Made by a program: the position numbers and the translations under genes | Assembly: GCA_964187785.1 (NCBI GenBank) | Contig: OZ076409.1 | Coordinates: 8,000,001 to 8,064,000, forward strand | Reading direction: 5' to 3' | DNA length: 64,000 bases | Source: Amphiscolops sp. MND2022 | Taxonomy: Eukaryota | Notes under the pieces: generated by a model | Databases searched by the model: none | The model's input: only the letters and a program-made list of their open reading frames with translations | Told to the model about the DNA's origin: nothing | Shown here: in pieces, positions 15,849-44,400 of the stretch | Layout: each line of letters opens with the position of its first letter | How positions within the stretch are numbered: position 1 is the stretch's first letter

Positions 15849-17070
15849 TTCATTTGATGAATTTAAAGAGTTAAACATCTTCAAGCCAAATTATATCAAG
15901 CCTCAATGAAACAAGCCGCTCAAAGTTTTAAAAAACCAAGTTCTTAAAATGTGTAAAGGGACACTTTCATAATGCCGGAAAATACCCGGAGATATCCATC
16001 ACGGCCGCTTTCTCTTAACTGGGAACGTCAAAAACATTTTGAAAACAGTTTCGAATTTTGTCTCTAAAAAGTCTAGAGGTGACGAAGAATGAGGTTTCAG
16101 CTCGCAAAACGCTTTTTTCAAGCCGAAACCATTTATGAAAGTTAAAGTGGTACTACCCTGCAACCAATTAAAATTTTTTACGAAACGTTTCACAATTATC
16201 GAGAAAACTCCCACCAGTTCTACAGGAACAAAAAAGTAATCAAAAGGGCACCCTCAGGACTCGAAAAAAATAGTTTTTTTTTACAGAAAACCTCAAAAAA
16301 ACATAAAATATGGAAACTTTGCTTCAACGTTTTGATTTTCAAAACTATTCTTCAAAGAAGCCCATTGTGCCGAAAAATTACTGGGCCCCCTTAATGAACT
16401 TGCTTGAACTTTTTACATGTTCTTTAAAGTTGCCATCAACTTTTTAAATGATTTTCTAAAACTCCTACGGAAACTTTAATGCGTTAATAATTCCCTGTTG
16501 TCATCAACCAACTTTTATCAAGCTGCTTGAACGTATCATCAAAGCTTTGGCGGCAATTTCCAGCCGTGAAGTTCTGCAAGTTTTATTATGCATCAGTTTT
16601 AATTTTAATAGCAGCTGAGACGTCAAAAATTTTGCCGCCATTTTACTGCAAAATAACTTCATTCACAATGTAAATAACAAACTTGCGTCATCTTCAGTGC
16701 TCTATTTGAGAAGCGTTGATTAAATCAGATGAGTAGTTGAGAAATTAAAACGTGAATACAACGTGATCCTATCCGTAAAGAAGCGGGAAATATTTTGAAA
16801 TTTAATTGCAGTAGTGGAAAATGCAGTCTAATTCTCCAAGATTAACCACCGGATGCTTCCTGAATTTTCTAGGTTTTAAAAAAATTAACCTGCGTGCAGT
16901 CCTGCAGCATGTAAGAAGTTCAAGCAGTCTCAACTAGGGCCTCTATGCCCGCAAAGCGCTGTTTCGGCTAAAAATCAAAGGGCCACAGTTGAAACTACTC
17001 CGAAAAAACTCGGTCTCACCTCTACTTTTGCAAGCATAAAAGATTTTTAGTTTAGTGGCAGACTGGAACC

Positions 17071-17470
17071 TGTGATGCCATGATGCATGTCCTCAAAGAT
17101 TCTATAAATCTGAAATACTCTGAACTCTTAACCAAAGCAATTAGTAAATGTAATCTAATTTAGAAGCTAAGAAACTTCATTTAATAGATCCTGTATCAAG
17201 CTCCCCTGATTCATCCTGTTGCTGTCAATTGTTAATTGATGTAACCTACCCTAGTTAATAGAATATATCTACTCGGAGAAATTGAGAATTCATCCTAACA
17301 ATCGGTCTTCCTCCCGCACTTCGATAACTGAGATCTCAGAAATAGATTGTACTCAGAACTAGCTAGCTACAAGATATAAGATAAGACGACTCCGCTGTTA
17401 AAATCTTAGACTTCTTATGACAGTACTAACACTCCTAAAAGAAACCACCACACAACTTTTTAACAGCTCA
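17071..17470 (+). repeat. 5' LTR (400 bp)
   Basis: TGTGATGCC...AACAGCTCA; differs from the 3' LTR at about 4 positions (3 substitutions, 1 indel, counted by eye). Confidence 0.97.
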
Positions 17471-17472
17471 AT

Positions 17473-17482
17473 TGGTGCGACC
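17473..17482 (+). promoter_or_regulatory. Primer-binding site (TGGTGCGACC), tRNA not assigned
   Basis: TGG (complement of tRNA CCA) 2 nt (AT) after the 5' LTR end. Confidence 0.7.
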
Positions 17483-18163
17483 AAGAAAATTCTTCTTTCT
17501 CTCCCATTCATTTCACACATCTACAATTGTTGTACCTCTTTCCTCGACTTTCTCATACGCTATCTCTTTGTTCGACACACAGTTTCTCCACCTCTCAATA
17601 TCGCCTATCGTTACTAACTTCAACGTTGCAACCAATTTCTATTTGAAATTGATCCGTGTTGCTATGGTTCTGACTGCGTTTCTCAACGTAATTCCTGTCA
17701 GTCATATTTCTTGGTTCTGACTACGTTTCTTGACGTAATTCCTGTCAGTAAAATTTTCGTTCCAACCACCACTGAGTGAATTTGTGTTGGCTTTCTCTCT
17801 TTCTTCCGTTCCAACCGCAGACGTGCGATACGTGTTGGCCCTTCTTCAGTGCTATCCAGCGATTCCTGCTAGTAGAAATCTCCTTGGTTCTAGCCGCTTG
17901 GATCAACTTTAAAGTTGGCACACATATATAACACATATTTTTTACATAACATAATTATAATACTTTTCTTGTTCTCTCCTCTATAGTACAAATAACATAC
18001 AAAACTCTTTTAAAACTAGCTTACGGATCCAAATACATAACAATTAATATATATAACACATACATCACATATTTCTTTATATAACTTTCATTTTTCATAC
18101 ACCTATATACAACAAATTTTTGTACAACTTCTTTGACATACTCTTAATAGAACTTTATTGTAT

Positions 18164-18545
18164 ATGCCGCCTTCAGTAGACACTATAGTTAAACTCATTG
18201 TCTGCTTTTGGTTTTTTGTTGCTATCATTGCCGGTCTTGCACTCTTTTTGGACAAATTCTTAATTTCATTCATACCAAAACTTTGTAGTACAACCTTTTT
18301 CTTCTATGTTAACAAGTATAGTACTACCTCTTTTTGGACTACTTAGTATCTACCACACTTTCCATACACTTATTCAATATATACAAAACCCATTCCTTCT
18401 TTTCATAAGTATTGCACTTACTATTTTCTTACAAGTTGTTTTCATAGATCAAATTTTACCATATAATTCACAATTCAATACAAAATATCTTCTTTTCCGA
18501 TACATCTATCCTTTATGGCAATCTTATTGTACTAATCAAACTTAA
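18164..18545 (+). pseudogene. Accessory ORF0 upstream of gag: small hydrophobic membrane protein, one frameshift
   Basis: ORFs 18158..18346 and 18306..18545 join near 18340 (WTT/LSIYH). Hydrophobic segments LIVCFWFFVAIIAGLALFL and FLLFISIALTIFLQVVFI. Stops 9 nt before the gag ATG. Confidence 0.5.
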
Positions 18546-18554
18546 TATCATATA

Positions 18555-21500
18555 ATGCTTCCCACTCCATTTACAGTCACTACTGACAAAAGACAAAATC
18601 GATCTCTTATACAAGATGTAACACCTTTTCTACAAAACATTATCTTTCAGTACACAAACCCACTTCCATTTGAAACAGAACCCCATATATTACATACTAT
18701 TCCATTAGTACGAGAACATTGTGATTCTTATCTATATTATATCCACTATAAAACACTTGATATTACACCATCACAAATCCCATTTCAAGTTATTTTTAAC
18801 CCTGTTAAAGGAATAAACCTTGGAACGTTTTATAGAACTATACACCCACAAAATATTACACTTTCTATACAAGATGTTTTTCACACATATATGCAAAAAC
18901 TCATTGAATTCAATGAAAACCAAGACACACCACCTTATCGTCCTTCTCATTTACAAGAACTAAAACACAGATCTGAATATTTCGAGGTCCCAGATCTTGA
19001 CACGAAAGTCCAACGACATGATAATCCTCATTATTGGTTACAACGAGATATCTTACAAATAAAACATTTTCAGTACAGATTCTTTAACAACATTATTCTT
19101 ACAGATGACACTATACCTCAAGTCAAATTTTTTACACAATTCCTATTAAAGTTTCTTAGATTTAACTACCAACTAATTTGGGAACAAAAAGATCAACAAG
19201 CCTATGTTAACTTCCCTCAAATATTAACACATATAGAACTCTTACCATACATCATAAAAAATGAAAACAAACATTTACATTACCGAGATCTTACTTCATT
19301 AAATGTTACACATTTTGAACAAATAAACTTAGATCACAACTTTGTACTTGAACATTCTGAAACATCAGATAACAGACCCTTTACTACACCTGATACTTCT
19401 CATGAAACAATTCCTGAAGAATAACCTAGTGTTGAACATTCATATACAAGACAACAATCAGAACAATCGGAACAAGAATCTCCAGAACAAGAAGCCCTTG
19501 GTAATCTTTTTCAAAATCCTGATCCTCCTCAAGAACAACCATCATACCCACCATTATCACAAATCTCAGATATGCAACAACCAAATCCTTCTGAAACAAA
19601 TACAATTCACAATACATCAGAATTTTCTGAAGAAACAGTACAAAATACACGAAGTTTTACAATAACCGATGATTCAAATCTTATAATAATTCCCACCCAC
19701 AATATCACACAAAATGAATTTACAAACCAAAATCAAGACAACACTTCAAATACAAACCCAGACAATACCTCTATTTTATCTACATCTAATACTAATATTA
19801 CTCAACACTCTCAGACACAAATACTATCTCCTCGAAATTATAATCCACCTTGTGTTCCACCTCAATTCTCAACTCAGATAAATACTCATGACTCCTCTCA
19901 ACAAAGCTCATCAAATACACCCTACATTGCACAAAACAATAATACAGTACATTTTCAAACACCAACTCCACCATTATCTTCTGAAATACACACTTCGACT
20001 TATACTCCAGCTCAAACCAACTCAGTACAAACTACACAACCTACCTTAAACATTAACACCATCCATTCCAACCCATCTACAAATTATACCACTGCCAGAC
20101 ATCTTTCTCCACCTCCATTACAACCTATATTAACTAACCCATTATCATACAGTCTCACCAGTACTAATCCAAGTCATACACAACAATCTCAGATAAATTA
20201 CAACACTTCCAATCCATTAAATACTCTTTCTTCTCAACATACATCCAATACAATCACTCCTACATTACAAACTTCTCAATTTCAAATACCAAATCCTCCT
20301 TAAACAACAATTAGAACTAACCCTCACTTTTATAATACTTCATCTACTTCTTTACCTAATATTTCAAATAATCCTACGTACAATACAACACCCCCATCTA
20401 CTATATCTCATAACACTATGTCACACCCAACATATATTAACTCTTCTACTTATATATCAGAACCCATTAAACCTTTTGAAGGACTCGATCACAATTATAC
20501 ACCTGAAGAATATTTACAACATATTGAGGCACGTGTTACATTTTCCTTAGGTTTACAACCTACATCGGATCATGAATATAAATTTTGGCACGCCCGTCGC
20601 ATGGCTTTCATACAATGTTCTTTAACAGGTACAGCACTAAGCTGGTACATTCGTTTAAACGACACTTATAAACATGATTGGCACGCTTTTATACAAGCTT
20701 TCAAAAAACAATTTTCTTCACAAAAGAACGCTTACTATGCTCACGTTGAAGCCCTTAATTTAACAAAAAAAGATAATGAAACAGTACGTCATTTTGCACT
20801 CAAAGTTCAACAGCTGGTTGAAAAAGGCTGGTGTAATGAGAATGCATCTACTATAAAACCTTAAATGTAATGAAATCTTTACAAAAGGACTTCCAAAAAA
20901 CCTTAAAGATTTTGCAAATAAAAGACAAGTAAAACACACCTCCACTGTTCTAGAACCTTCAATTCCTTTTCATACATTAGTAAAACTTGTTGATGCTGAA
21001 GACATAGCAAACGACAAAATCAGATCACATGATCTTGCACTTGAAATTAATAATATTACAAAACAATTGAACACTCAAACTCTTGATCACTCATCTCAAG
21101 AACAACTTATGTATACACAACCCAAAGACCCAAACAACAAAAATAAACCTGCATATAAAAATATTGCTCATATTGTCATAGAACAAATCACTCCATTTCT
21201 GCCTGTTTCAAAAAACAACGAGATGATGAAGATAAACGAGAAGCATATGCTCGAACAAAATCTCCACAAAAATCATTCGTTCAGTACTTTCGTTCTCCTT
21301 CCAATGACAGAACAAAACACTATGATAATCGATACCGAAGTCGAAGTACCTAACGAGACAACTCTTACAACAAAAAATTATTCACAAAACCGATACCGTT
21401 CTACATCTCTCGATAGAGACAGATTTCGTTACGACAAAAGTACTACTCCTCCACACTACTCTAGAGCAAGATATGATACATACAAACGTGATTCTCGATC

Positions 21501-24500
21501 TTACCGTTCTCCTTACAGATCTTCTTATAGATCCCCATATCGACAAAACTCTCGTCCTAGATACAGATCACGCTCCTATTTAAGAGATAACAAATTCACC
21601 AAGTACACAAATTCATATAGACCACCTTCAAGACCAAGAGACTCTAGATTTTCTAGATCTCGCTCACACTCCAATTCTAGAAATAAAGTCAATATGATAC
21701 AACAACAAGACCAAACTGACCCTATCAAATTTGAAGTACACATTTATCACCCAACAGCAATGGCAAATGCTGTCACACCTACAATTTGGTTTTATACACT
21801 AAATGTACACAACCTATCAAGAATAGTACAAAGAGACAACCCATCTAGATTAGAAATTGCATTCCTCCTAGATAGCGGTGCTTCCATTTCTGTACTCAAT
21901 TACCCAACATACATAACTCTTACAAAACTCCTAGATATTAGATCAAATCACACCTCTAATGTTGGACCAACTCGAAATTCCAAAACATTAACCGTTGCAA
22001 ACCAAACTGAAGTTCCTATTTTACATTATGCAAATTTAATTTTGAACACCACTATTGATGAAAACTATCGTTACTTTTCAGTACCTTTCGCAGTAGCTGA
22101 TATCAAATACAACATCCTTGGCACACCATTCTTTGAAGACAATATACAAAACATAAACATACAAGATTTTACACTCGAATTTAAATACCAATCAAAAACA
22201 CACCCAAATTATGCAAAATTCACAACACTCCTATCTAAAGATTATTCATACTTCTCTTACATTTATAGAATTAACTCAAAAACTCAGATACGTCTAAAAC
22301 CCAAATCTTCACAAATTGCACACTTTCCGATCAAAAATTATCATAATCGTCATTTTACAACCACACCACAAAACCACTTCTTTCCTTTAGTACCTCATAC
22401 CTATTTTGCTACCAAATTCCGTAAAAATTTCAATTTCATTGAAGTATTTACAGACGACAAGCCAGATATTTGTGCAACTATTATTCAGAACACTTCAAAA
22501 CATATTGCAACCCTACCTACAAGACATATTGGATACATTGAAGTTCCAATTACTAATGAAAACCCTAAATTCTTCCAAGTTAACGACATTAATACTTTAA
22601 TACATAACGTTACCCATACTTATCATCCTGATATTACTGAACCACTTCCACAGACCAACTATATTGTACAATATGATGATCCTACAACCCCTCCTCCTCC
22701 TCAATTCTCTCTACATCAAATTTATATGACAAATAACGACATTCCAAATCAAACTTCTCCTTTATATAACGTTCAGCCTACTTCTCATACTTCCGAAAAA
22801 CGCATTTTCCCTTCTCTACCATATACTTCTGAAAATCTGAAATTTATTAATAAATTTAACTTCCAATTTTCTGACCTTACAGATTCAGAATACATTACTC
22901 ATTGCAATATGTTACTCAAATATAAAACATGTTATGCAACTCATAAAAACGATGTTGGAAAACTTTCATTACCATTTCGTATACGACTTAAACTAAATGC
23001 TCAACTTATGACACAACGTCCTTCCAAAGTCCCTATCCACTACCGAGACAACCTTAACGTACTTCTCAAAGAACTCGAAAAATATAACATTATCAAACAA
23101 ATTGGTTCTTCTCCTCAAGACAAACCCGTTTATGGCACAACTAATTTAAACCCTCTTATTATAATCCCCAAGGGAGATACAATAAAATGTGTATTAGACG
23201 CTCAACATCTTAACTCCAATACAGAACAATCCGATGAATCTTGGCCTATTGAACCTCTTGCTCCACAACTAGCACGCGCAAATAAAAAGTACAAATCTGC
23301 TATTGACCATATGTATGCCTATGCACATACACCTCTTGACGAAGATACTATAAAACTTACTAGTTTCTCCTCCGGAGATAAACTTTTCGCTTTTATCCGA
23401 GGCTTTTATGGTCTCAAAGGACTACCAAACTTCTTTACAATACAAATGTCTACTTTCTTTAAAACTCTTATAGAACATGGTTTCGCTCTTGTCTACATTG
23501 ACGATATATTACTTTTATCTGATTCAAAAGAACACATGTTCCAACTCATAGAACAACTACACATTATTAGTACAAAAAACAATCTTAAACTAGCCCCTGA
23601 AAAATCCTTTTTCATGCTTCTTAAAGTCAAATTCCTTGGACATGAAATTGGTTACAATACAATTAAACCAATTCATTCAAAAATTGCAGCTATTCATAAG
23701 ATCCCTTCTCCAACTGGCAAAGTTGCCCTAATTAGTTTCATTGGCGCACTCAATTTTTACACCAAGTTTATTGAAAAACTACATATTAACCTCAAACCAT
23801 TTTACGATCTTTTACATGAGAACACTCCTTGGAAATGGACAGACGAACACGAAAGTCTATTCCAAAAACTTAAATTGTCTCTCACTTCTGAAACAGAATT
23901 AACAATACCAAATACAAAACATCCATTTTTCATTACAGTTGACGCTTCCCTTATTGGATTAGGCGCTGTCTTATTTCAATTGAATGAACAAAACAAAATG
24001 AAAGTCATATCGTACAACTCTCGTATACTTAATCCACAAGAACAAAAACTCTCCACACTTGATAGAGAACTTCTTGGTATAGTACACGCACTTCAAATCT
24101 ATGAATTTCTCATCATAGGTTCTCCCCATCCAATACACATTTTTACTGATCACAAACCTTTATTATATTGTTTTACAAAGAAAGGTAATCTCAGTCCTCG
24201 TTTCTACAGAGCTCAAATGCAATTGACAAAATTTTCAAAACTCAAAATAATTCATACTCCTGGAAAAAATCTCTCTGTTGCCGATATGTTGAGTCGCTCC
24301 TTCACAAAAGCTGAATTACAACTAAACCAATTAAAACATAAACACCTCCCACCACAAATCGATTTTGCACTTTTACAAGATAACACTCTTAAACCTGTAC
24401 ATTACTTAATAAAACATGAAGAAATTTTACCTCATCAAAAACATGACTCTCATCCAATTCCTGCTGATTATGGAACAGATCAATTCTCTATTCGTATCAA

Positions 24501-26752
24501 TGATAAAGGAAATGACATTGTTGTCAAACCGTTACAATCCTTCTCATTCAAATCCATAACTCCTTTTCAAACTAAGTTCAAGACACCTACAAAAAAGAAC
24601 AACAAAACCCTCCATCAACAATCTTTCTTACTTAATGATACTGACGTTACAAGTGATGACGAAGATCATATTTACACCAGAATTCCAAAATCTGACTCTT
24701 CTTTCTTACAAGATACAACATTACAAACAGAAAATTGTTCTACTCTTAAACAACCAACTCACACTACCTCACAAAAATCAATTTCTTCAATAAATGTACA
24801 ACCAAAATTACCATCTCTCACACACTGTCAACATATCATACCTTTCTATGATACATCATTTTTTAAGTACAAAAACTATTTTCAAGGTTTCTTCCTTCCA
24901 GATGATTACTCATTGGACATAAAAACTTTTCAACAACAACAATCCCAAGATCCGGTTCTTAGAACTGTTTATTCTTGGTTATTAAACAATGAAAAACCCG
25001 AATTTGTAACACCTCTCATCACTGGTACTCCATTTTTACATGTATATTACAAAAGATTCTCACAACTTTTCATTGACGAATCCACAAATCTTATTAGTCT
25101 AGATATTACAAACCCCACTGTTATCAACCAATCCTCTACTCCAAATTTTGTACAAGACACTATTCGTATATGCCTTCCTTTCCGACTGTTTAAAGCTGTC
25201 TTTAACAAACTCCATGAACACTCCCATACTGGTATGAAAATCACCTACAATACATTCAAACAATATTACTACATTCCATTCCTTGAAAAATGGCTTTCCA
25301 TTTTCATACATGATTGTATTGAATGTCAACGAAACAAACTTTTTGATATGAAAATTCAAACTGTTCCTACACAATCATTTTCAGAACATGCTCCATCTTT
25401 CAACTATCGAATTTCAATGGACACTAAAGGACCTATTAATCCTCCTTCTCACAACAAATCCTATATACACGTGATAATTGACGCTTTTAGTCACTTTGTT
25501 GTTACAGTACCCATCAAATCAAACAACGCAAAGACTGATATCAAAACTCTCCTACACCATTGGATTATTAAATTTGGACCACCCATATATCTTGTTCCTG
25601 ATCGTGGATCAGAATATGTTAATAAAGAAATGGCACACCTTTGCACACTTATGGGAATTCGTCATTCTCCTAGAACAGCTTACTCTCCTTGGACAAACGG
25701 CCTTGTTGAAGTACAAAACAGAAATCTTGGTACCCATTTACGAATGTTCTTACATGACATACCTAAAGATTGGGCATTCCAAGTCCATATGTACGCTTCT
25801 GCACATAATTCACAACCACTTTCAGAACTCAACATTTCACCTCAAGAAATTGTTTTCCACACCCGACCCAGAATACCCCTTACATTTGATTTGAACCTTA
25901 ACCGAGACACCTCTAAAACATGTATTTCACGATATTGCTCTCAACTTCCAGCACACTCCCATTATGATAAATCAGATTTAAACCCATTTTTCTATAAAAC
26001 ACTTTCAAAACCCATTCCACATTGGTTTCTCGCTGTAGAAACTGCTATGTTACAAATTTATTCTACAGTATACGAAAACACTCTAAGAAAAATCAATTCA
26101 CACGCCTATATTACAAAAACTTACCATGAAGGTAAACCCCTTCCTATTGGTACCTTTGTTTTAAAACGCAATTTTACACGTTCACTTTTCTGACAAACTA
26201 AAACCCCTTCGGATTGGACCATACAAAATTCTTGACAGATTATCAGACGTCACATATGAACTACTTGCACAAGATGGCTCTACAGTCCACGTCCACAGAA
26301 AACATTTAATTCCATATTATCCAAAAGAACCACTCTTAAATCCACACCTGCGTAGTTTTATGCGCTTTTCAGACACAACTCAATTTCAAATTCCACAACC
26401 TATCAAATATGCAAACAGTGATTCTTCTCCTTTTAACTCAGACGAATCGTTGTCAGAAGAAGATTCCCAAACATTTGTAACACCATCATCATTTAGTACA
26501 TCCAATCAGAATACACCATCTATAACATCCAATGACAAGTCTTTGACTCCCTCAACCAATGACAACTCCTTATATAGACATATAATTAATACCCCTCACA
26601 CTAATGTCTCTAGTGACAGATCAAGACACTCATCTAATAACCAAACAACTTCACTTCCTCCTCTAATTGACAGAACCACAAAAACTACTTATAAACTACC
26701 ACAACAACCCAAATTAGATTATAGACTTTTTATTACACCTTCAAAACTGTAA
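18555..26752 (+). pseudogene. gag-pol: gag-pol polyprotein (Gag capsid, CCHC knuckle, RS-rich region, protease, RT, RNase H, integrase with GPY), ~2700 aa, decayed
   Basis: ORFs 18555, 19572 and 20418 are in one frame. Motifs: SLTGTALSWY (gag), CSYCHRTNHSISAC (21165), LLDSGAS (PR), YIDDIL (RT), DASLIGLGAVL/TDHKPL/ADMLSR (RH), H-H-C-C and D-D-E (IN), GPY after 26178. Stops at 19422, 20301, 21351; frameshifts ~20856, ~21160, ~21372, ~26178. Confidence 0.95.
21377..26193 (+). CDS. pol: Uninterrupted pol portion (PR-RT-RH-IN)
   Basis: Part of ORF 21067..26193; catalytic motifs DSG, YIDD and IN SMDTKGP/PDRGSEY/NGLVE are present. Confidence 0.93.
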
Positions 26753-26838
26753 TCCAGTCATTCTATCCGTTGGCTCACTCAAAACTAGTCACTCCAGTTG
26801 AATGAAATATAACCCATAACAAGTTATCTCAAAGATAA

Positions 26839-28080
26839 CCTGTTGAAAACACTTCAACAATCCTGGATCCTCCCTCTGATATATCTCCATCAGCTCCAAC
26901 TATTCCTTCCCCACCTGAATCTTCAGTATCTAGCACTACAAACTCTAGTAATGTAACTCCTACTACTCCTTCTAAAAGATCAAGGTCATACATCTCTAAA
27001 ACCACCTCTTCCTCCCTTCTTCACAGACCACCTATATCTGAAATTCCTATAAACACTCGTCCTCAACAAACTTCTATTAACACTCCTATTATACATATAC
27101 CAAACCCTGAAAGTGTTGAACAATACGTAACATACAAACATCCTACAGCTATCAAAACTGTTAGACTACAACCTCAACTTAATCTTGTACAAATCCCTGA
27201 TACTGAATATACAAAGCTACCTTCACTAAAATTACCTTCAGAACTTAGCACTACTTCTTCAAAACTTTATCCACCATTAAAACCTCTTCGAAAACCCTCT
27301 ACATCACTCTCAAATCTTTTAGACAATAATACTTCAGACTACGCTCCATCACAAGACACAAGCTCACTTTTTGTACCTAAACATAGATATAATCTTCGTG
27401 ACCTTCCTTCACGTAGACTTAGTACAGACACTTCAACACTCAATTTTTCGGCTCTTTCTAGCAATTCTGCATTACGACTTGTACGACAACACGCTCAACC
27501 ATTGTCCTCTGACACACCATATTCACAACTCTTCCAATCTCCTTATTTTACTTCTGTTTTTGAAACCGCTTCACTACTCTCATCTAACCCTCAGACTGCA
27601 TTTTTATCAGGAGACCTTTTCTCACAAGTAGTAATCCCTACTCCTGTTCCTGCACATATTAGACTGCCCGAATACTATACTGCAGAACACTCTAGACCTC
27701 CAACTCCAAATTTTGCTGACTATTCACTTAGAGTCGATGGTATAACCATCTACGACCCACAAAACGATCCCCGATTTCCAATTCTTGCAGAACGTTTCAT
27801 TAACAACAACGACCTCTTATCGCACAAACGCAAAGAAACAGAACTAAAACGCCTCCAGACATCAAATCTAGAACTTAAATTTGAAGTCAAAGTCAAATTT
27901 CAAGGATTAAATCCACACCCAATATTTCACGTCTCTAAAATAGAACATAAAACCTCTCCTGCTCCTTTTGAAGTAGTACATATTGAATTTGAACGCGATC
28001 TTAATATACCCACTATCACATATGGCAACATTGTCTTCTGTAACCCATATTCCGGTCTTAAATATACATCATCTTTTTAA
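26839..28080 (+). pseudogene. Accessory ORF X between pol and env: long S/T/P-rich region plus a ~130-aa globular C-terminus
   Basis: The frame of ORF 27502..28080 is open from 26839 (~413 codons); two upstream in-frame stops at ~26803 and 26836; no ATG in the open part. Confidence 0.5.
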
Positions 28081-30736
28081 ACCCTACACAACCTTTTACA
28101 TAACACATCTCATTATTTATTTACATTTATTTAACTCTACCTTTTCCATACCCATAACACCCTCTGACACAGAAAACTATCTTCCATCGGATGACCCAAA
28201 TATTACAAATCTCATGGTTTCTCATTATGACTGTGAAAAACAACACAATCTGAGACAATTTACTCTACTCAATGTAAAACAATGCACTGAAGCTCCTTCC
28301 GACATTAAGCATGCAAGTGTTAAAGCCCGTGTATATGTCCGAGCAAAAGCTAAACGCATCAAAGCTTTTAAATGTGTTGCTTATGTAAAGAAAGAAAGGA
28401 AAATATGCTTTCAAGGTTCCGTAAAATACCGTCGTGTTGATAGAACCGTATGGAATCATAATACATTACCGCTCCCTGTTACTCTTGATCCAGTAGAATG
28501 TAAAAACATTATAAGACATTTAAATGGTACAAATGATAAGATACTGAATAACCTTCAATACAACAAAACTTTTACACTCTTAGAAGATCATTATTTTCAA
28601 GAACGTTTAGAACAATATCAAACCCTTTTCACTGTATATCAATTGAACAAAATGTATACAGGTACATTTACATTTATGCCTGCTGATAAAAACTGGATAT
28701 ATGACCCTACTCAAAACCCTTATCATAACTGTCCTGCTCATCATCAATTCGAAGTCAACTTAGTTAGTTGGCGACTAGAAATTTCTGAAGTAGAACTTAC
28801 ATATGATGACACATCTAATGACATGATAATCGATGGACATACATTACCCTGCTACTTTGCAGATGGTTTCTGTAAACCCACTACAAAAACTCCTTTTACT
28901 CTTGTTTGGTTCAATGATGATTATTGTCTAATTTTTACCTTACAAGACTTTATTGGACGTATGACTAAAATTGAAGATAGATATTGGACTGAAACAGACT
29001 CTTTTGTACATTCTCCACATCCAATAAAATCTAAAACAGCTTCTGGTATCAAAGGTACAGAACATCCCTATGTTTATGCTCCTCATACACAACATCCAAA
29101 TAATCCAAGTCTTTCAAGATTTGAAGTTTTTCCTACAGCACAAACCTTTTGTGGTAAACCAGACCCTCTTTATTCTACACAATATTCAGACCTTTTTGTT
29201 ACATACACTGATGGTTTCAATATGCATACTGGACAACCCAATCCTCATTCCATGATTGATGAATATATTTCTGGTAAAATAGTATTAGACACTTCAAATA
29301 ACAAATTTGTATTCCCTGCATTAAATGTCTCAAACAATTTTGCTACCATTGATTATGATGCACATATAAACACCAAAATCAATTATACTATTAATTATGT
29401 TTTCCGATCAATGACAGTACAAGAACTAAATACTCTTCAAACAATATGTGAACTAGAACGAAACCAACTCCTTACAATACTCGCAATGTCAGTACAAAAC
29501 CCTCAACTTGCTGGTTTCCTCTTAACCGGTAATAGAAGTAACTTCTTATACGTTGAAGGCCCAACCGCCTGGCTTTACGACTGTCCTCATTTTCTATCTC
29601 CTTTATACAAAACAGATAGATGCTTTGACCGTATACCAATACATTTTAAAGATACCTTAATGTACGTTGATCCTATTACAAGACAAACTTATGATTATGC
29701 TACACCAATTACATGTGATAATAATCCACGTAACATTATTGAACTAGATCCTGATTCAGACGATCAAGACTTTTACATTCTTGGACCTGAACCTATTAAA
29801 CGCAAACCTCCACTAATGTTTACACCTTCACAAATCAAAACTACAAAACGCCCTAATACTTTTACAGCCCAAGATGCTGGTATAAATTCAAATGCAGAAC
29901 TTGATCAATTTTGGAACCGTATTTTATTTTCTAAACATTCTGATTCTACGCTCCAATTACTAGGCAAAGCTCTTAGTTATTCCTTCATTTCATCTAATAC
30001 TCCAAATTACGATGCAGATTCCCCTCAAGACTCTGGTAATCCTTACAATACATTACGTATAGGACTCCATGATAAACTCTTGAATTTAACTCCTCTTTTT
30101 ACACCTACATGGTTTTCAGATGCTTTTATTGCACTTTTTGGATACCCTTGTTACATTCTCACACAATGTGGTATATACTTTTCTACATTTCTTTTCGTAC
30201 AATCTACTCTTACACTCATTGTAAAACTTTACAAAACAATATCTATTAAATTTAATCTAAAAAATAATATTACTTTATTTAGTTCTATAGCACATGGTTT
30301 TTTTAATGTTCTTACAGCACGAATGGTCAGTGACCTCCATGAGACTCAAAACAAAAAACCCAAAAGTACACTTTTAAAATCCAAGTCTTTAGATAATTTT
30401 ATTGACACTTCTCCAAATCTAATTAACCATTCTACATCTACAGATGTTACTTCCCCTCCACCTTTCTACACTAAACGTCCTAACAAAATTCAATTTCCTA
30501 AATTTAACTTGTTTCCGAAACGACACCACAATTCTCACCATAAAACGGCTCCACTTCCTTTCTCTCCTGTTCAACATCCTCCACTTCCTAATTATACTCA
30601 TAAAGACTTTCACTCGAATGACAATCTAACTACTCAACATGACACTTTAATTAACAATCCTGTCACTTCTACTACGGATACACCAATTAAAATCTATTCG
30701 CGGATAAACTATCCTTTTCCTCCTCCATCTTCTTGA
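28022..30736 (+). CDS. env: Envelope glycoprotein, chuvirus-like/class III fusion protein, 904 aa, intact
   Basis: Hydrophobic signal-like N-terminus; motifs HYDCEK...LLNVKQC, FKC...KICF, ICELERNQL...NPQLAGFLL...LYDC...RCFDRIPI...VDPITR...ITCD; N-glycosylation sequons; C-terminal TM (FGYPCYILTQCGIYFSTFLFV) and Pro-rich tail. Confidence 0.85.
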   Translation: MATLSSVTHIPVLNIHHLFKPYTTFYITHLIIYLHLFNSTFSIPITPSDTENYLPSDDPNITNLMVSHYDCEKQHNLRQFTLLNVKQCTEAPSDIKHASVKARVYVRAKAKRIKAFKCVAYVKKERKICFQGSVKYRRVDRTVWNHNTLPLPVTLDPVECKNIIRHLNGTNDKILNNLQYNKTFTLLEDHYFQERLEQYQTLFTVYQLNKMYTGTFTFMPADKNWIYDPTQNPYHNCPAHHQFEVNLVSWRLEISEVELTYDDTSNDMIIDGHTLPCYFADGFCKPTTKTPFTLVWFNDDYCLIFTLQDFIGRMTKIEDRYWTETDSFVHSPHPIKSKTASGIKGTEHPYVYAPHTQHPNNPSLSRFEVFPTAQTFCGKPDPLYSTQYSDLFVTYTDGFNMHTGQPNPHSMIDEYISGKIVLDTSNNKFVFPALNVSNNFATIDYDAHINTKINYTINYVFRSMTVQELNTLQTICELERNQLLTILAMSVQNPQLAGFLLTGNRSNFLYVEGPTAWLYDCPHFLSPLYKTDRCFDRIPIHFKDTLMYVDPITRQTYDYATPITCDNNPRNIIELDPDSDDQDFYILGPEPIKRKPPLMFTPSQIKTTKRPNTFTAQDAGINSNAELDQFWNRILFSKHSDSTLQLLGKALSYSFISSNTPNYDADSPQDSGNPYNTLRIGLHDKLLNLTPLFTPTWFSDAFIALFGYPCYILTQCGIYFSTFLFVQSTLTLIVKLYKTISIKFNLKNNITLFSSIAHGFFNVLTARMVSDLHETQNKKPKSTLLKSKSLDNFIDTSPNLINHSTSTDVTSPPPFYTKRPNKIQFPKFNLFPKRHHNSHHKTAPLPFSPVQHPPLPNYTHKDFHSNDNLTTQHDTLINNPVTSTTDTPIKIYSRINYPFPPPSS

Positions 30737-30795
30737 ACACTCTCTCAGTTTTTCTGTAACTCTCTTTCAGTACACTTGCCTACTATCTCTTCACA

Positions 30796-31245
30796 ATTGC
30801 TACTCCTCCACCGCTCGAAACTCTTGCAGAAGTTCATCTTCCTCAGCCCAACAATACTTCTCTAATAATAACCGTCTTCAAAAACTCTTCAACTAAAGTT
30901 GATAAATCCACTCGTTAGTGTAATTTATAGTACTTTCACTTTAAGGTGCTAAGGCCTCTTGGAATAGATAACACTGTGATTGTTGATGTTTTTAAAACAA
31001 TGACACAAGCACAAATTGACCTACAAACACAGCTTGAACAAGCAACCCCAACAGATCTTATAACTAGACCTCTTTCAAATGATTCTCCTGTTCTCTATAA
31101 TGAGACTTCAGAACAAACACCTCCAACTTTTCTTGAACCAATGGAACACACAAAAGTTGAAAACGAAAATTCAAAACCTACTCCTCCACAAGATGATACT
31201 GATCATACACAATCGACACCACCTCCTCCAAAAAAAACGATATGA
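30796..31245 (+). pseudogene. Accessory ORF Y downstream of env (~150 aa, two stops)
   Basis: The frame of ORF 30946..31245 extends upstream through two TAG codons (~30916, ~30928); acidic/Pro-rich with a PPPPKK end. Confidence 0.35.
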
Positions 31246-31249
31246 AATT

Positions 31250-32329
31250 ATGAAAGATCCAATCTTTCTTTCATCACCAATATATCCTCCTTCAATACCT
31301 TCAAAAATTTCACTTTGCACGAACCGCGACGATCATTTGATCTCAATTCTTTCTACTGACGATTTCGTCTTCAAAGCCCAGCTAACTTCTCTATATATGC
31401 ATCCTACTGACTATTCATTTCGCTTATATGACAAAAATCAAGACTTCTTCACATCCATTGCTTCCAAAATAATGGGTCCATACCAATATTGGCTCGAAAA
31501 CGGAGTTAAAATTTTCTCTCTCCAATTCAATTTTCTTTGACCTTCTATATACGATCTCAAAACAGATGAATCTGATCCATCTTTTCTCTCTATAGCACAA
31601 AAAGCTACTCATCATCAAACATATACTAAATTCCTGCAATACACGAAACCACAAAATCACATTTTTGTCAATTACAAATATATATCACCGTTCACAATGA
31701 CAAATATGTACACTCTGGACCACTCCTGTATAACAGGCTACCTTCGAAACTATGACCCTATGAAACAATACTTCTGTTTGCTTCCATACAACAATACTTC
31801 ACGCCCACCTATTGTACCTCAAGAATATCTCATACATTACGATGATTTTTTGTTGCCTTGCAACATTCCTACTCAAATTGCCAAACCTCTTACTGTTATT
31901 AAACACCTAGTATCTTCTCCACTTGACGATAAAGATAGAACGTACTATACAGCACTCTACAAGCAAACGTATTCCTACAATGAACTTCTCTTTATTTCTG
32001 CCAAAACTATCTCTTTCATGGTACAAGCTGAACAAAAAACTGAACATAAATCACACGCTTCACCCATAAAAAACGCTCCTGACAAACTTTCCTCTGTAAT
32101 AAACAATCGAACACTTCGCGACATAACAAGTTTACTTGAACCCTATAAACGAAACTCCTCTGAAACATCTATCACAACACTCACACATATACTACACTGC
32201 TACGACAGAACACACAAACTCCTTCAGACACTCGATTTAGACTCTCAACGCATCACTCAATCATCCCAAGCAATCCAATCTGCTTTGGAAACTATAACTA
32301 CTCTTTTTAACGCAACTAATCTTCATTAA
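31250..32329 (+). pseudogene. Accessory ORF Z (~359 aa, one internal TGA), unknown function
   Basis: ORFs 31079..31540 and 31697..32329 are in the same frame and the interval after TGA 31538-31540 is open; aromatic-rich globular N-part, helical C-terminus. Confidence 0.6.
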
Positions 32330-32784
32330 ACTCTTCTACAGGTAATATAAAGTTCTTAATTTTTCTTCTCTGGTACACTCTATGATACATCTGTGGCACA
32401 TTATAAAAGGTATTTTCATTTTTACCTACTTCTTTAAGGTAAATTTTTGCTTTTGAATGAAATCTCAGGACTATTTTTCAAGTACACTATTTTTTCCTAC
32501 AGTACATGTCAAAAATCTAACTATTTCTATCAAAAAAAACTACAATACAAGACATACAAGACAATATAGCACAACACTACATATGATACATTATAGCACC
32601 CAATTTTGTTGTACATCTTTGACTTGATATTGTCATTCTTCTTACACTTCCTTTGTTTTAGAAACATCCATTCTTCTTCCTCCTCCTTCCATTCTCTTTC
32701 AGAACATCTCCACTTCTCCTTTTTCGTCTTCTACAGGACTCTCTCGTCATTGCCCCCAACGCTGAAATACAAGATATAATAACA

Positions 32785-33201
32785 ATGACTTCCAGCCACT
32801 CAAAAGTTCATAGCCTAAAAGCAGCTATTTTTCACACAATGGCCTACAAACTTTCCCTGGAGATCAACAACAATAAAATAACGCCAAAATCTCTTATCGC
32901 TTTTCTGAAAGTCTTATATATTGTCGCCCAAATCAAAAAGAAACACATTACATTTGAACAATATTCAAGGATTCATGTCGCCAGACCAAAAATTGCCATT
33001 TGTGAAACGGCTTCTAACGTCGTTTTTGTGTTAAACTCGGCGTTCACGTCTAAAGACTAATATTTTCAAGCTGCCCTACACGAAGCCACAAACGCATTTA
33101 ACGAGATGCTTCATAGTTTTGGATATACCCAGAAACTCGAACACTATGATCCTCATCAACATCAGGCACACCCACCTCAACAACATCCTCTCTACAACTA
33201 A
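32785..33201 (+). pseudogene. Accessory ORF W (~138 aa, one internal TAA)
   Basis: After TAA 33058-33060 the frame continues YFQAALHEATNAFNEMLHSFGYTQKLEHY...LYN*; polypyrimidine-CAG acceptor at 32736. Confidence 0.45.
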
Positions 33202-34402
33202 AACAAAATTCTACTTACTTTTATCACTCTTCAACTCCATCTCTTCTTGAATCCATCATTCTTCTTCAATGATGTTTGAGATGTAGCTGTCGATCACTCC
33301 TTCAAAAAACTCCTACACATGCTGAAACTCTTCACTCCACCCACACACGATGGTCAACAACATCCATCTCCACTTTGGGTTCATCGACGTTGCCAAATTT
33401 TGTCCTCGTATAACTTTAATACAGTGTAATGCTATATACTCTTCCCTAATCTTTAGTGCTATATACTCTTATATACTCTTAATCTTCTGTAATCGCATTA
33501 TAATTACCCCATTATTGCAAAATCCCTTCAAAATTCTACCGATAATTATCTTTGTAACCACAATATTATCTGCTCCTATTTTCTTGTGTATAGTACAATA
33601 CCTTAATCTTATCTAATTATGTTGATACATCAATAATTCACTTCAAAAATGTTTCTCCAATACCCATCTTTTACAGAACACAAGTCCTACCTACAGTACA
33701 AGAAGCTTTCTAAGATTTTTGGACAAAAATTTTTTTCTTTTACCAAACATGTTCTACCCCTTTGTTTTAATCCCCAAAAACATTCCCAAAAACTTTCCAA
33801 ATTTTTCTTTAGAACTCTTGAAAAATGTCACTTCTAGCTTTCTAATGTTTGAAACTTGAAATTGCCAAAGTTTTTTTTTCTCAACTTTTGCCTCTGCTCT
33901 ACTCTTCACTTTCGTTGAAAATGAACTCTCACTTGAACCTTGACTTTTCGAAACTTCTTCACTTTAGGTTCACATACCCGCCAATGTTGGTTCACAGCTC
34001 ATTGACAACTTCACGCTTTAGTTCTTCAACTTGAAAAGTTTTCCATGCTGACTAACTCATGTTGATGAAAGAATTTTTTCAAACAAGCCGATGGCTGATA
34101 CGAAAAAGAAACATGAAATGATAAATAGTTGTCAACAATAACTTCAAAGAACTTGTCAGTCAAAGAAACTGAAAGAACTTGAACCTTGCCTGAACCTTTT
34201 TGCACCAATTGAATCGTCTATGACGTAAGAAGTCAAATCGTCTTAGGTTGTTCTCACTCCTTAAGTATGGTACTTTACAAAACGAAACTCATGGAACTCT
34301 AGTACAACACATATGAAACAAACCCATGCATATAACAAAAACTTCTAGAACTCCTCAAACCCAAAGTGCATATATGTAATTTATTTTAAATTCCCGGTTG
34401 AT

Positions 34403-34803
34403 TGTGATGCCATGATGCATGTCCTCAAAGATTCTATAAATCTGAAATACTCTGAACTCTTAACCAAAGCAATTAGTAAATGTAATCTAATTTAGAAGCT
34501 AAGAAACTTCATTTAATAGATCCTGTATCAAGCTCCCCTGATTCATCCTGTTGCTGTCACATTGTTAATTGATGTAACCTACCCTAGTTAATAGAATATA
34601 TCTACTCGGAGAAATTGAGAATTCATCCTAACAATCGGTCTTTCTCCCGCACTTCGATAACTGAGATCTCAGAAATTGATTGTACTCAGAACTAGCTAGC
34701 TACAAGATATAAGATAAGACGACTCCGCTGTTAAAATCTTAGACTTCTTATGTCAGTACTAACACTCCTAAAAGAAACCACCACACAACTTTTTAACAGC
34801 TCA
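34403..34803 (+). repeat. 3' LTR (401 bp)
   Basis: Direct repeat of 17071-17470, followed by the AACC TSD. Confidence 0.97.
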
Positions 34804-35312
34804 AACCAATGTGATCCTGTTTTTCAGACACCAGAAAATCCGGGGTAACTTCTCGGCCAAGAGGCAGAAGTTACACAGTTAAACTAACTTATATATTGGC
34901 TTTTAAACTAGTCAGTTGGCGGGTCTCAAAAAAGCCACTGCTATAGTCGGGTCTTTTCTTACGAACAATTCGTGAAACTTAGTTAAACATGGCCTTATAG
35001 CGTATTCAATAGAGCCGTTGTTTCAGGGAGGCATCTCCACCCTTCCTTCTTTCGCAGTGTAAGACTGAAGTGGCTGGTCCCGAAAGAGCAAAATCTTGCA
35101 GTTCCACTGCGCCTGCTTTGATGTGCATATACCCTGTCAGATTTGCAGAGAACCATTGAATCACGTGACTGATCATGAACAACAAAAGCATGTTTGTAAA
35201 TTTTTGAAGAAAAAAGAAAATTTGCTATAACCAAAATGTATACAAAATTTATAACATTGTTTGATGGAAGCCTCCTTTATTTACAGGTGGTTGTTTTCAG
35301 GACTGTTGGAGT

Positions 35313-41400: not shown

Positions 41401-44400
41401 AAAGTGACATTTATTTTGCCGAAAACGAGGAGAAAAACAGCCAAAAATGAGCGCCAAAAACAGCTTGACATGGCTGAAAAGTTTTGTTCCTACCCTCAAC
41501 CCACGAATGCTACTGCTCCCCCCACTTTCCTCGTCAGAGTCCATCCTCGGAACTTTGGCCCTGGGCGCGAGAGCTTCAAATTCGAACGATGACTCAGAGG
41601 CATCGCTTTTTCCTCCAGGGTTAATGTTGTTCATGACGTGTTCATCTCTGGAAGCATGTTGTTCAGCATCTGTTATGGACAGAGAGACGCTGGAACAAGC
41701 CTCAACTGTGCAATGGAAGTGATCGATAGAGATAAAGGGACAGGGGCCTGAAACGAATTTGTGTCGAGTTGCAAATGAACTTCGATTTACAATGTTACAA
41801 TAATTGCATTACATAGTTTATGATTGCCAGTGTTATAATAAACATTCAATACTACTTCTTTAGTATCCGATGACCTAAACCACGGTATCCAAGCACTTTT
41901 GGAGTTTTGACACCGCTAATCAGCGATCTAGCGGCGAATTAGCGGCCGCGCAGAATTTTTTCAGCGATTCTATTGGCTTTTCAAATTAGCGGCAACCAAT
42001 AGATTGCCCAAATTTGAAATTTCGTCGAAACATAACGGAGTTTCTAAGTGAATTTCGAAACATTCCAATTCTTACCTCGGCCAAACCCACACAGTATGAA
42101 AACTCTAGTCTTTTTCTTGCAAAAACTGAATAAAGATATTTTAAAAATTTTGGAATTCAAATGTTCAATAGCTTGAAGAAGAAGATTTTCAGCGAAATAT
42201 TGATTTTGAAAATAGCGGTTTAACGATTAGCGAAAAAATAAGCGATGTCAAAACTCTGCTTTGGATCTGTAGATTTGATGCTCAATCTTGAATTTTTCTA
42301 TTGAACTCGTTTCATTTTGTTTTCCATTTTCACATCTGAGAAAAGTTAAGGGTAAAGTTTTCTAACAAGTATATGCATTAGAGTGTCGAGTGTTCGGGAC
42401 ATGAGTGACGTAATGAGACAGCATCTCGGGAAGCGTCGTCTGCACTGTTGCGTCACACAGTGAGCCTTCTTTCGTCACCTGAAGTGACAATCCATTTTGA
42501 AACATGTTCTAAAGCCTAGCTCGAACCTTCGACCTTTTCAAAACATAAGGTCAACAGAAAACTTATGATCAGTTTTTGATGTTTGTCAGACTGTTTGTCA
42601 GAATTTTTCCCGATCATTTCTGTACGTTTGACAACGTTATTTTTTTTTTCCAAAATCCATTTTCTGAAAAATGAACAACCAAAAACTGTGGCAATTCCCT
42701 AACACATAGTGGTAAAACAATATTTCATCAATCAAATGCTTAAAGTTTGTTGCAGGGAGTTTTTTTACGAACATTTCGAGATATTGTACCGGAAACTTCA
42801 GAAAATGCCAAAATCTACCAAGTGTCGTCGGGTGTCCTCTATTTTTCAAAATTCCTTGTATTCTTCAAAAGATGCATAAAGTGTTTCTAAATAGAAGTTT
42901 GAAACTCCGTAAAATTTAAAGATTTCTTCGGATAACATTTTTTTCAGAATGTGCCACACATTTTTGATCAAATTTGAATCCGGAGAATGTGGGGGCCAGT
43001 TTCCAGTGATGTAAAAGCATTCTCTTGAAAAAGAAACATTGTCTTTGTTACCTGCATGGGCCGGTGCGTTGTCCTGTTGGAAAACTTGATATAGATAAAG
43101 AAAGGGAAGAACCTTCTTTTTCAAACAATCAATGTAAGCATCAGCGTTGATTTTGTTTTTGATGGGAAAAATCAACCTTTCGCCATTCGATCTGACACAT
43201 CCCCAGATCATCAGTTTTTTTGCTGGCACTTTTGAACTTTGGCGTGAATAAGTGGTGAAACCCAAACTTACGTGGTCTTCTGACATGTATTCGACGAGTA
43301 GGTCATATTTCAATCATCGTCTCGCCGACATTCCACCAGTTTAGCCCATTTCTTGTCGACTTTTGATATAATTTTGATCAGCAAAAAGTGATTCTTTTCA
43401 CCCGATTTAAGTTGGAAACATTAGGTATTTTGTTGTAAAATTCTGCCTTCAGGTTGTATTTACTTAAAATCTTGCAAACCGTGAAAGGTGCGATCAAAAC
43501 TTGTAAAATTTAAACAATTTCAGCTGTTAAAAAGGGTCTTTTTACATGTTCGAACAACGGTTTTTTCGGTAAATGCGTTACGTTTTCGTAGGCTTCCGGG
43601 CTGAATTTGCGCTGAATCGTTCTTCGTTCTAGAACTCTCCCAATAACAGGTGAAACGTTGCTTTTACGAATGCTCAATATTTTGGAAACTTGAGAAAAAC
43701 TTTTTTTTGCAAAAAAAGTAATAATATTTGCTTTATCTTCAGCGTAGGTTTGAAGCGTCTTTGGTTAAAAGAATTAGAACTTTTGTAAGAAAGCTTGTCA
43801 AATTACTTTTTGATCAATAGCTTGTTTACTTTTCCAGCTACCCTAGAGTTTGCGTTATTTGATAACATTTGCCTAGCAAATTGTTGAAGAGGTTGCAGTA
43901 TTTTAGAACGCTACTGTATTTGTATAGTTTGTTTACAAAACTGTGATTAAGAAAACGTACCCCTATGCGCTAAGCGCCATTATAAACCAATTAGAATAGC
44001 ATATTTGCTCTCACTTTTTACTTTGATTGAGTTACTCCGCATCAAGTGAAATCTCAGGTGCAGAAGGAACACTTTTGGAAAAACAGCAAAAATTCCCAAT
44101 TTTGCTCAAAATCAGCGATTTATAACTTTCTCTCTTTCTTTGCTCTAGAGAATTCAAAAAACTATAAATTAAACTAGATGAATTTCTAAGAAACTCTTAT
44201 TACTGAAGTTTTTCAAAATTCTCAATCGCTTAGAGAAAATCAAGCCTAAAAAGGCCCGGGGGACGTTTTCTTAATCACAGTACTGTGTTTTAGAATAAAC
44301 GACTTCAGATTGTCAGAACAACTAAATTTAACTAACCACTTGACAATGTGAGTGAAGTTCTTCGTCATTGCTGTGGATACAAATCAGTCTTTCGCAACCT

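Follow-up and report, generated by a model that had tools for sequence, protein, structure and literature searches.

A probable env-bearing Ty3/gypsy-type endogenous retrovirus family with conserved accessory reading frames in the genome of Amphiscolops sp.

The closest described systems for the locus analyzed here, an element at positions 17071-34803 of a 64,000-nucleotide stretch ('the window') of the Amphiscolops sp. MND2022 genome (assembly GCA_964187785.1, contig OZ076409.1, positions 8,000,001 to 8,064,000 of the forward strand), are retroelements bounded by long terminal repeats (LTRs) that carry more than gag and pol. According to a recent survey (Chary and Hayashi, eLife 2026, PMC13524379), env-carrying Ty3/gypsy elements with an HSV-gB/Chuviridae-like env, referred to as 'errantiviruses', occur across metazoans; the survey deals with the three canonical open reading frames (ORFs) only, and its authors state that other ORF arrangements were not searched for. 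In planarians, Burro/GYPSM1 exceeds 30 kb and is present in thousands of copies, as described by Arkhipova and Yushenova (2019, PMC6431247). Three further sources report a spliced ORF, CERV, in the Cer1 element of C. elegans, acting in genomic RNA export (PMC10309623), varied ORF3s in LTR elements of bdelloid rotifers (PMC5408684), and a chuvirus-like glycoprotein in mosquito BEL/Pao elements (PMC7642597).

The Amphiscolops locus had been presented in an initial annotation, made from the sequence alone, as a 'complex retrovirus' with a functional set of accessory genes. The present analysis indicates, with a probability of roughly 0.8, that 17071-34803 holds a single, defective copy of an env-bearing endogenous retrovirus of Ty3/gypsy type, which has a high copy number, was active recently, and carries accessory frames kept by selection. 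The element is delimited by the following features:

17067..17070, plus strand: 5' target-site duplication, AACC, with its 3' copy at 34804-34807, read from the sequence
17071..17470, plus strand: 5' LTR (TG...CA), 400 bp, differing from the 3' LTR by three bases and one 1-nt indel
17473..17483, plus strand: primer-binding site (PBS), TGGTGCGACCA, TGG-initiated, 2 nt past the 5' LTR
34403..34803, plus strand: 3' LTR (TG...CA), 401 bp

These features identify 17071-34803 as a genuine LTR element. A repeat search likewise recovers direct repeats at 17071-17471 and 34403-34804, which are 99-100% alike and 17.33 kb apart. All the long frames lie on the plus strand, as had been claimed, the minus strand holding none of more than 91 codons.

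Copies were searched for in the host assembly (1.07 Gb in 1,929 contigs). A first look at the LTR gave 2,855 candidates; all of the 41 matches that were scored are 97-100% identical, and 26 can be matched up on the same strand, giving 13 pairs with a spacing of 15.1-21.3 kb. Gag, pol, and env are found in one LTR-bounded unit, present in multiple near-identical copies. Three copies, named A, B, and C, are 96-98% identical to the window and constitute subfamily 1 together with it (the two overlapping halves of A, B, and C were analyzed separately). Copy D belongs to a sister subfamily of the same genome, about 25% diverged from that of the window. It measures 17,856 bp, with LTRs 99.0% alike and a nucleotide identity to the window of 69-78%, and every frame is open and in the same order (gag-pol ~2,673 codons, X 420, env 909, Y 481, and W 165). 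A third lineage, E, is represented by an 18,759-bp element with identical LTRs (320/320) and an interior with 8% G. Along it, uORF1 is followed by a hydrophobic frame at the place of ORF0, then by the N-terminal gag domain, pol, X, env, and Y, an unchanged order. Its X homologue (454 codons) is 39% identical in the C-terminal half, its env (953 codons) 52% identical, and its Y (505 codons) 37% identical. The plan of the family is, thus, LTR, PBS, hairpin repeats, uORF1, ORF0, gag-pol, X (413-454 aa), env, Y (465-505 aa), an intron-like spacer, W, and LTR, with ORF W present in two of the three lineages.

This shared plan bears on the possibility that the large size of the element reflects nested unrelated insertions, or host genes captured by an ordinary gypsy element. 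The variation in LTR spacing among copies would fit this explanation, and X, Y, and W have no homologue outside the element family, so that a foreign origin is possible. Nevertheless, neither an internal LTR pair nor another long direct repeat was found in the element, all frames share one strand and the same extreme composition, and their order and spacing are constant across lineage E, copy D, and all four copies of subfamily 1. Nesting is, therefore, very unlikely. An old capture followed by co-evolution is conceivable, but its product would be an accessory gene and not a nested insertion.

The largest gene provides both the class of the element and most of the defects of the window copy:

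18555..26752, plus strand: gag-pol, ancestrally one ORF of ~2,700 codons, from Pfam and copy comparison

It is laid out as an N-terminal domain, a low-complexity linker, the capsid, a CCHC knuckle, a protease (DSG), reverse transcriptase (RT; YIDD), RNase H, integrase, and an SH3-like tail, the DSG, YIDD, and CCHC motifs being read from the translations. Pfam places Retrotrans_gag (E 3.3e-09) within 20304-20864, and RVT_1, RT_RNaseH (4.2e-25), Integrase_H2C2, and rve (3.4e-16) in 20857-26193, and the frame at 26165-26752 is the integrase C-terminus (SH3_Tf2-1). The intact sister copy D carries the same Pfam domains. The order of protease, RT, RNase H, and integrase, with gypsy-type RT_RNaseH and integrase H2C2/SH3 modules, classifies the backbone as Ty3/gypsy-type; neither Peptidase_A17, typical of BEL/Pao, nor a copia-type order was seen in the Pfam results. 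A Retroviridae-type pol or gag was not found either, the Pfam families being Retrotrans_gag, RT_RNaseH, RT_RNaseH_2, and SH3_Tf2-1. The label 'complex retrovirus' is, thus, apt for the conserved genes beyond gag, pol, and env, but not for the class, as the pol is of Ty3/gypsy type and not that of Retroviridae.

In the window, this gene appears in pieces, among them the frames 18546-19424, 19425-20303, 20304-20864, and the long frame of pol. They all belong to one gag-pol ORF, which is unbroken in copy D and runs over 1,584 continuous codons in copy A. The lesions are in-frame stops at 19422 and 20301, and frameshifts near 20855, 21157, 21372, and 26177. Over the whole element, indel comparison with the other copies gives four in-frame stops and five frameshifts, and since these break its genes, the window copy is considered dead. 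ORF X, env, and ORF0 are intact. The gag N-terminal domain (~290 aa, 18555-19424), which is followed by a ~300-aa low-complexity linker and then the capsid, is kept in all three lineages. For this domain, a weak Atlas lead to DUF8422 clusters of rotifers and arthropods (score 0.94, recognition 1114) was not confirmed.

Selection on the frames was assessed by the ratio of nonsynonymous to synonymous changes (dN/dS, NG86). The between-subfamily values stand at a dS of 1.2-2.1 (1.2-1.8 for those listed here), which is near saturation, and the within-subfamily values come from only four subfamily-1 copies (6 pairs). The two off-frames serve as a reference:

gag N-terminus: between 0.225; within 0.32; off-frames 1.32 and 1.24
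capsid region: between 0.066; within 0.36; off-frames 0.84 and 1.45
pol: within 0.46; off-frames 0.98 and 1.02
ORF X: between 0.148; within 0.30; off-frames 1.02 and 1.52
env: between 0.099; within 0.30; off-frames 1.01 and 1.18
ORF Y: between 0.125; within 0.33; off-frames 0.62 and 1.35
ORF W: between, dS not computable, dN 0.31; within 0.30; off-frames 1.85 and 0.85

In this comparison of genomic copies, which the initial annotation had proposed, the extra ORFs are conserved, with dN/dS of 0.10-0.33 between subfamilies and 0.30-0.46 within; the latter range holds for every ORF in its true frame, versus 0.62-1.85 in the off-frames. The accessory frames behave like env and pol in this respect. 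Furthermore, for X, env, Y, and W, the amino acid identity is equal to or higher than the nucleotide identity. Judged from their sequences, the frames for X, Y, W, and the two leader peptides described below are genuine coding genes that selection on the element has maintained.

Base composition offers another way of explaining the extra frames, namely as accidents of a G-poor strand with few TAG and TGA codons. The element interior is indeed poor in G (A 34.9, T 30.9, C 24.5, and only 9.8% G, with a GC skew of about -0.45), and it holds several overlapping plus strand open frames of 60-140 codons that are clearly non-coding by-products. Nevertheless, the TAA codon by itself is enough to hold the expected frequency of stops near 6% per codon. 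By arithmetic from the interior composition, a stop is expected every ~17 codons, so that chance does not explain plus strand frames of 413-1,778 codons. The contrast between dN/dS of 0.10-0.33 in the true frames and about 1 off-frame, the amino acid identities just mentioned, and the maintenance of frames in lineages at only 37-52% protein identity also argue against such accidents, to which hardly any probability can be given. The neutral frames and nested unrelated insertions, either of which would have spoken against the initial annotation, are, thus, disfavored by dN/dS, shared order, strand, and composition. The functional accessory gene set that it proposed holds at the level of the family, with the same order in three diverged lineages and dN/dS well below 1, the window copy itself being defective.

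The G depletion is sharply bounded. From 17936 to 34030, G amounts to 7-10% and C is enriched to 20-25%, starting ~465 nt after the 5' LTR and ending ~370 nt before the 3' LTR, with 14-15% G in the LTRs and adjoining parts and 18-19% in the flanks. It spans the non-coding leader and trailer as well as the genes, and likewise in lineage E. A simple G-to-A editing gradient does not fit, because the loss of G is offset mostly by C and not by A, and because the part upstream of the 3' LTR is spared.

Between pol and the end of env, four features can be distinguished:

26803..28021, plus strand: ATG-poor stretch before the env start, with 2 ATGs in any frame versus 10.8 expected in 1,219 nt
26839..28080, plus strand: ORF X, 413 codons without an ATG codon, intact, overlapping the env ATG at 28022
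26863..26865, plus strand: candidate non-AUG start codon for ORF X, a CUG flanked by A at -3 and G at +4
28022..30736, plus strand: env, 904 aa, intact, Pfam PF24664, inside a 919-codon frame at 27977-30736

Env is, by its match to PF24664 (Monjiviricetes_fusion, E 2.1e-22, 79.3 bits versus a cut-off of 27), classified as a fusion glycoprotein of the chuvirus-like (Monjiviricetes) kind. In its translation, a hydrophobic signal is seen at the N-terminus and a membrane anchor at the C-terminus; a PDB sequence-profile search with env gave no match. Among unnamed ENA proteins, it falls in a cluster of 1,758 members at 90% identity or more, with further clusters at 76, 61, 53, and 27%.

ORF X overlaps the env start, as the initial annotation had noted. 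The N-terminal two thirds of the protein are rich in serine, threonine, and proline, the C-terminal ~120 aa are conserved, and basic motifs are present. The translations lack a Met codon in all three lineages. An in-frame A-N-N-CTG-GAT stands at the start of the conserved part of X in six of six copies from the three lineages, and this CUG, at 26863 in the window, is the predicted start codon. The glyco-Gag of murine leukemia virus (MLV) is a known case of a CUG start. ATG is depleted in the other lineages as well, with 3 versus 11.8 expected in copy D and 0 in 1,622 nt versus 11.5 expected in lineage E (P <= 0.001 each, 2,000 shuffles). Among segments of equal length, the stretch ranks lowest or tied lowest in ATG count within the window element and also within the piece of lineage E, and no scanned segment of equal length in copy D is as low. 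The leftover ATGs are out of frame, and open only 1-17 codons. In the proposed mechanism, X and Env would be made from one subgenomic RNA, X starting at the conserved CUG in its strong context, or through splicing from an upstream exon, and the ribosomes that pass the X start would scan the nearly ATG-free 1.2-1.6 kb to the env AUG. The HIV-1 vpu-env pair is a known example of a bicistronic mRNA with leaky scanning.

A different origin for X, either as a C-terminal extension of Pol made by read-through or frameshifting, or as a spliced second exon in the manner of Cer1 CERV, would also account for the missing ATG, and is compatible with X and pol sharing a frame in copies D and E, and with the branch-point-like TACTAAC plus pyrimidine tract found in lineage E just upstream of X. 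However, in copy D, pol and X are separated by two in-frame stops 37 codons apart, and in subfamily 1 they are in different frames, so that read-through is not conserved. This origin is, overall, less likely than not for X, although its splicing variant is uncontradicted. The ATG-poor stretch would fit either a CUG start or a weak, spliced-in AUG. Maps of AG dinucleotides gave no clear splice acceptor for X.

The part of the element downstream of env comprises two further genes and the spacer between them:

30931..32329, plus strand: ORF Y, 465 codons stop-to-stop, ATG at 31000; in the window, frameshift near 31230 and stop at 31538
32339..32347, plus strand: 5' splice-site-like motif CAG/GTAATA, 12 nt past the Y stop
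32651..32661, plus strand: 3' splice-site-like motif TTTGTTTTAG, upstream of ORF W
32662..33060, plus strand: ORF W; in the window, start codon absent and premature stop at 33058

The frames 30931-31245, 31064-31540, and 31541-32329 of the window are one 465-codon ORF in copies A and C. The initial annotation had taken them for the separate, tightly abutting genes Y, Z, and probably W. The number of genes that it gave and their borders had to be revised, gag-pol being one gene and Y and Z (with probably its W) another. The conserved ORF at 32662-33060, which is the ORF W of the present text, and a second leader ORF (ATG at 18164) had been missed.

Among unnamed ENA proteins, full-length relatives of Y reach down to 57% identity. 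One cluster at 67% (502 members, 473 aa) belongs to the sister subfamily, whose Y is 67-68% identical to that of the window. A more distant relative (447 aa, 40% identical) is not encoded in the host genome at >50% identity, and a search with it led to further lineages, lineage E among them, with Y frames of 376-601 codons. A profile of Y, run against 1.84 billion representatives, matched 556, none of which carries a name; in the list of the 150 best, fragments predominate. ORF W measures 179 codons stop-to-stop in copies A, B, and C, or ~150 aa from its ATG, and is 62% identical to that of copy D. In lineage E, its place is taken by an unrelated ORF of 308 aa, rich in serine, threonine, and proline (L040:1028-1954), the ATG of which lies 2 nt after an acceptor-like TTTGTTTTAG.

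The splice-like signals recur with these genes. GGTAA occurs 9 times in the 16.1-kb interior of the window element, and 8 and 3 times in the other two of the three lineages compared, and in each there is one 3-12 nt past the Y stop. The sequence TTTGTTTTAG also precedes W in copy D, and in lineage E it lies 2 nt upstream of the start codon of the ORF that follows Y. In the proposed mechanism, a conserved intron beginning just past the Y stop would be removed, linking Y to the ORF behind it. Three features of the sequence, namely the ATG-poor stretch, the conserved CUG, and the donor-like and acceptor-like motifs that follow Y, point to leaky scanning and splicing, and we infer that expression of the accessory genes may be regulated and involve spliced RNAs.

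Some public contigs align to the element. One ends at 24901 in letters that we take to be a cDNA template-switch adapter, and it is not used as evidence; neither is another, which continues past the 3' LTR into an unlike flank. About 200 bp at 33409, in the 3' untranslated region, are missing from the window copy, and present in copies A, B, and C as well as in a public contig.

The leader of the element and its 3' end hold smaller features:

17665..17756, plus strand: tandem 47-nt leader repeat, two copies, each with an internal inverted repeat
18164..18283, plus strand: uORF1, hydrophobic, ~40 aa, ATG at 18164, its stop lost in the window copy
18306..18545, plus strand: ORF0, hydrophobic, 79 aa, its stop 9 nt before the gag ATG at 18555
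34393..34402, plus strand: CCCGGT(T/C)GA(T) block abutting the 3' LTR, kept in three lineages while the flanking sequence is not

Because the uORF1 stop codon is lost in the window copy, the frame continues there to 18346. Compared with copy D, uORF1 has 51% amino acid identity and dN/dS 0.33, and it is recognizable in lineage E by the motif MPS..D...FIP. ORF0 is 41% identical to the 78-aa ORF0 of copy D, with dN/dS 0.26 (0.257), and 0.44 within the subfamily, versus 0.96 and 1.57 off-frame. Both small ORFs are, thus, conserved, although at the DNA level they have diverged too far for BLASTN. The initial annotation correctly gave the distance of 9 nt from the ORF0 stop (18545) to the gag ATG (18555); it is 12 nt in copy D, and in lineage E the two overlap (TGATG). 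In the window and copy D, the start contexts have T at -3 for uORF1 and ORF0, and A at -3 for gag. Full-length RNA would, thus, be translated via leaky scanning or reinitiation past two weak-context leader ORFs to the gag AUG. The leader peptides may be small membrane proteins.

The 11 letters of the PBS, TGGTGCGACCA, are identical, and at the equivalent position, in the sister subfamily and in lineage E. A 12-nt tRNA end matching it was not present in part 1 of Supplementary file 1 of PMC13524379. The block at 34393-34402 is presumed to be the plus-strand primer site, although it is not purine-rich; it occupies the expected site of the polypurine tract, and has GGTCG in common with the complement of the PBS. 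The leader repeat has two units in the window, three in copy D, and four in lineage E, where the unit is a different hairpin-like sequence from that of the window and copy D, with a short inverted repeat in every unit. These repeats are possibly hairpins acting as a packaging or dimerization signal. A search of the element against Rfam gave no match at E <= 0.1. Outside the element, a 154-codon minus strand frame at 42846-43313, with a DDE_3 transposase match (E 2.5e-09), the sole Pfam match among the 14 flank frames scanned, is probably the remnant of a DNA transposon.

One candidate function was put forward for Y on account of the chuvirus gene order, L-G-N. Y as a captured chuvirus nucleoprotein found no support in Pfam, Atlas, or a PDB profile, and 214 pattern matches in viral contigs yielded none that could be confirmed. 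The structural model of Y is too poor for a fold search. With the X model, Foldseek against BFVD allowed no assignment (best E 8.5e-03, TM 0.07), and PHROGs gave nothing below E 0.07 for the accessory proteins.

Several observations weigh against the reading of the locus as an endogenous retrovirus with a selected, regulated set of accessory genes, in addition to the near-saturated dS and the small number of copies given above. The openness of the frames speaks for the reading, no stop being present in 84 of 101 best-scoring genomic matches for X, 76 of 91 for Y, 88 of 90 for the Y of the sister subfamily, and 147 of 150 for its W, but these counts include the best-scoring matches only, a sample biased to intact copies. 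W was not found in lineage E, the 308-aa ORF downstream of Y showing no similarity to it, and the 78-aa hydrophobic ORF at the place of ORF0 in that lineage has no significant similarity (BLASTP E 0.43), and is alike by position only. Searches of Pfam, PHROG, PDB sequences, viral contigs, and Atlas revealed nothing related to X, Y, or W. The AlphaFold2 model of Y (mean pLDDT 34.7 from a 23-row alignment) is unusable; that of X is disordered to about residue 290, with pLDDT 64-84 in parts of 300-420, where a small alpha/beta C-terminal domain is predicted, and VIA-align found none of 48,161 chains at Z >= 5 for it (best Z 3.9). As for expression, the assessment of the splice motifs was visual and relied on counting them, with no trained model, and no splice joints were seen in the contigs of one public run, of unclear kind, aligned to the window. 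Lastly, the CUG could be merely a conserved Leu codon, and the signals upstream of the CTG in lineage E fit a splice acceptor.

The family was not found in the published literature, in a search that was far from exhaustive. The comparison with complex Retroviridae, such as HIV-1 and MLV, reveals accessory frames around env, an upstream frame overlapping the env start, no strong AUGs in between, and splice-like signals; in contrast, complex Retroviridae have a Retroviridae pol, and their accessory proteins are without sequence relation to those of the family, so that the resemblance would be convergent. A tentative extension of the reading, which we hold to be less probable than its opposite, is that a complex-retrovirus gene programme evolved independently in a clade of invertebrate gypsy-type retroviruses made up of the family and its sister lineages. 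Such a programme would comprise pre-gag membrane peptides, an AUG-less X, CUG-initiated or spliced, sharing an mRNA with Env by way of an ATG-free scanning path, a Y-W pair coupled through an intron directly behind the Y stop, and RNA with <10% G, with X, Y, and W as new classes of accessory proteins. The family makes it testable whether accessory programmes of the complex-retrovirus type arose independently in invertebrate retroelements. It provides three orphan proteins of considerable size and two short, presumed membrane peptides, all of documented conservation, with RNA export, Env handling, and silencing evasion as candidate roles, and the sharply bounded G depletion may bear on replication or host defence.

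Among the invertebrate elements, those of bdelloid rotifers (PMC5408684) and mosquitoes (PMC7642597) offer a general likeness, as LTR elements with captured env-like or extra ORFs. Nevertheless, such an element mostly carries a single extra ORF, which often codes for an enzyme (GDSL lipase, DEDDy exonuclease, dUTPase), domains not found here, or else its backbone is BEL/Pao. Cer1 CERV, as described in PMC10309623, resembles X as a lineage-specific ORF after pol, without a start of its own, and with no homologues outside the hosts of the element. It differs in occupying the place of env, whereas X precedes a true env. At the level of a guess, X might act in RNA export, regulation, or RNA handling, in a manner like that of CERV, or else as an assembly or Env helper.

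Burro shares its excessive size as a gypsy-like provirus, an env of the mononegavirus-type fusion glycoprotein kind, and accessory ORFs (PMC6431247). In the same account, however, its env lies in frame between gag and pol within a 4,873-aa polyprotein, and BIR, MATH, and ankyrin domains are present; in the present family, env is a separate ORF after pol, and none of these three domains was found by Pfam in the window or copy D. The 'errantiviruses' are similar in the LTR-gag-pol-env order, the Ty3/gypsy pol, an env of negative-strand RNA virus type, and the many near-identical copies (PMC13524379). Compared with that description, the present family keeps five more frames, its gag and pol are fused into ~2,700 aa, and the element measures 17.7-18.8 kb. 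While env-bearing gypsy elements have been described with three genes, seven conserved frames are, thus, found here in thousands of young copies. Overall, the family is of the env-bearing gypsy kind, and is unusual in the number of its orphan frames, its fused gag-pol, its translation and splice signatures, and its composition.

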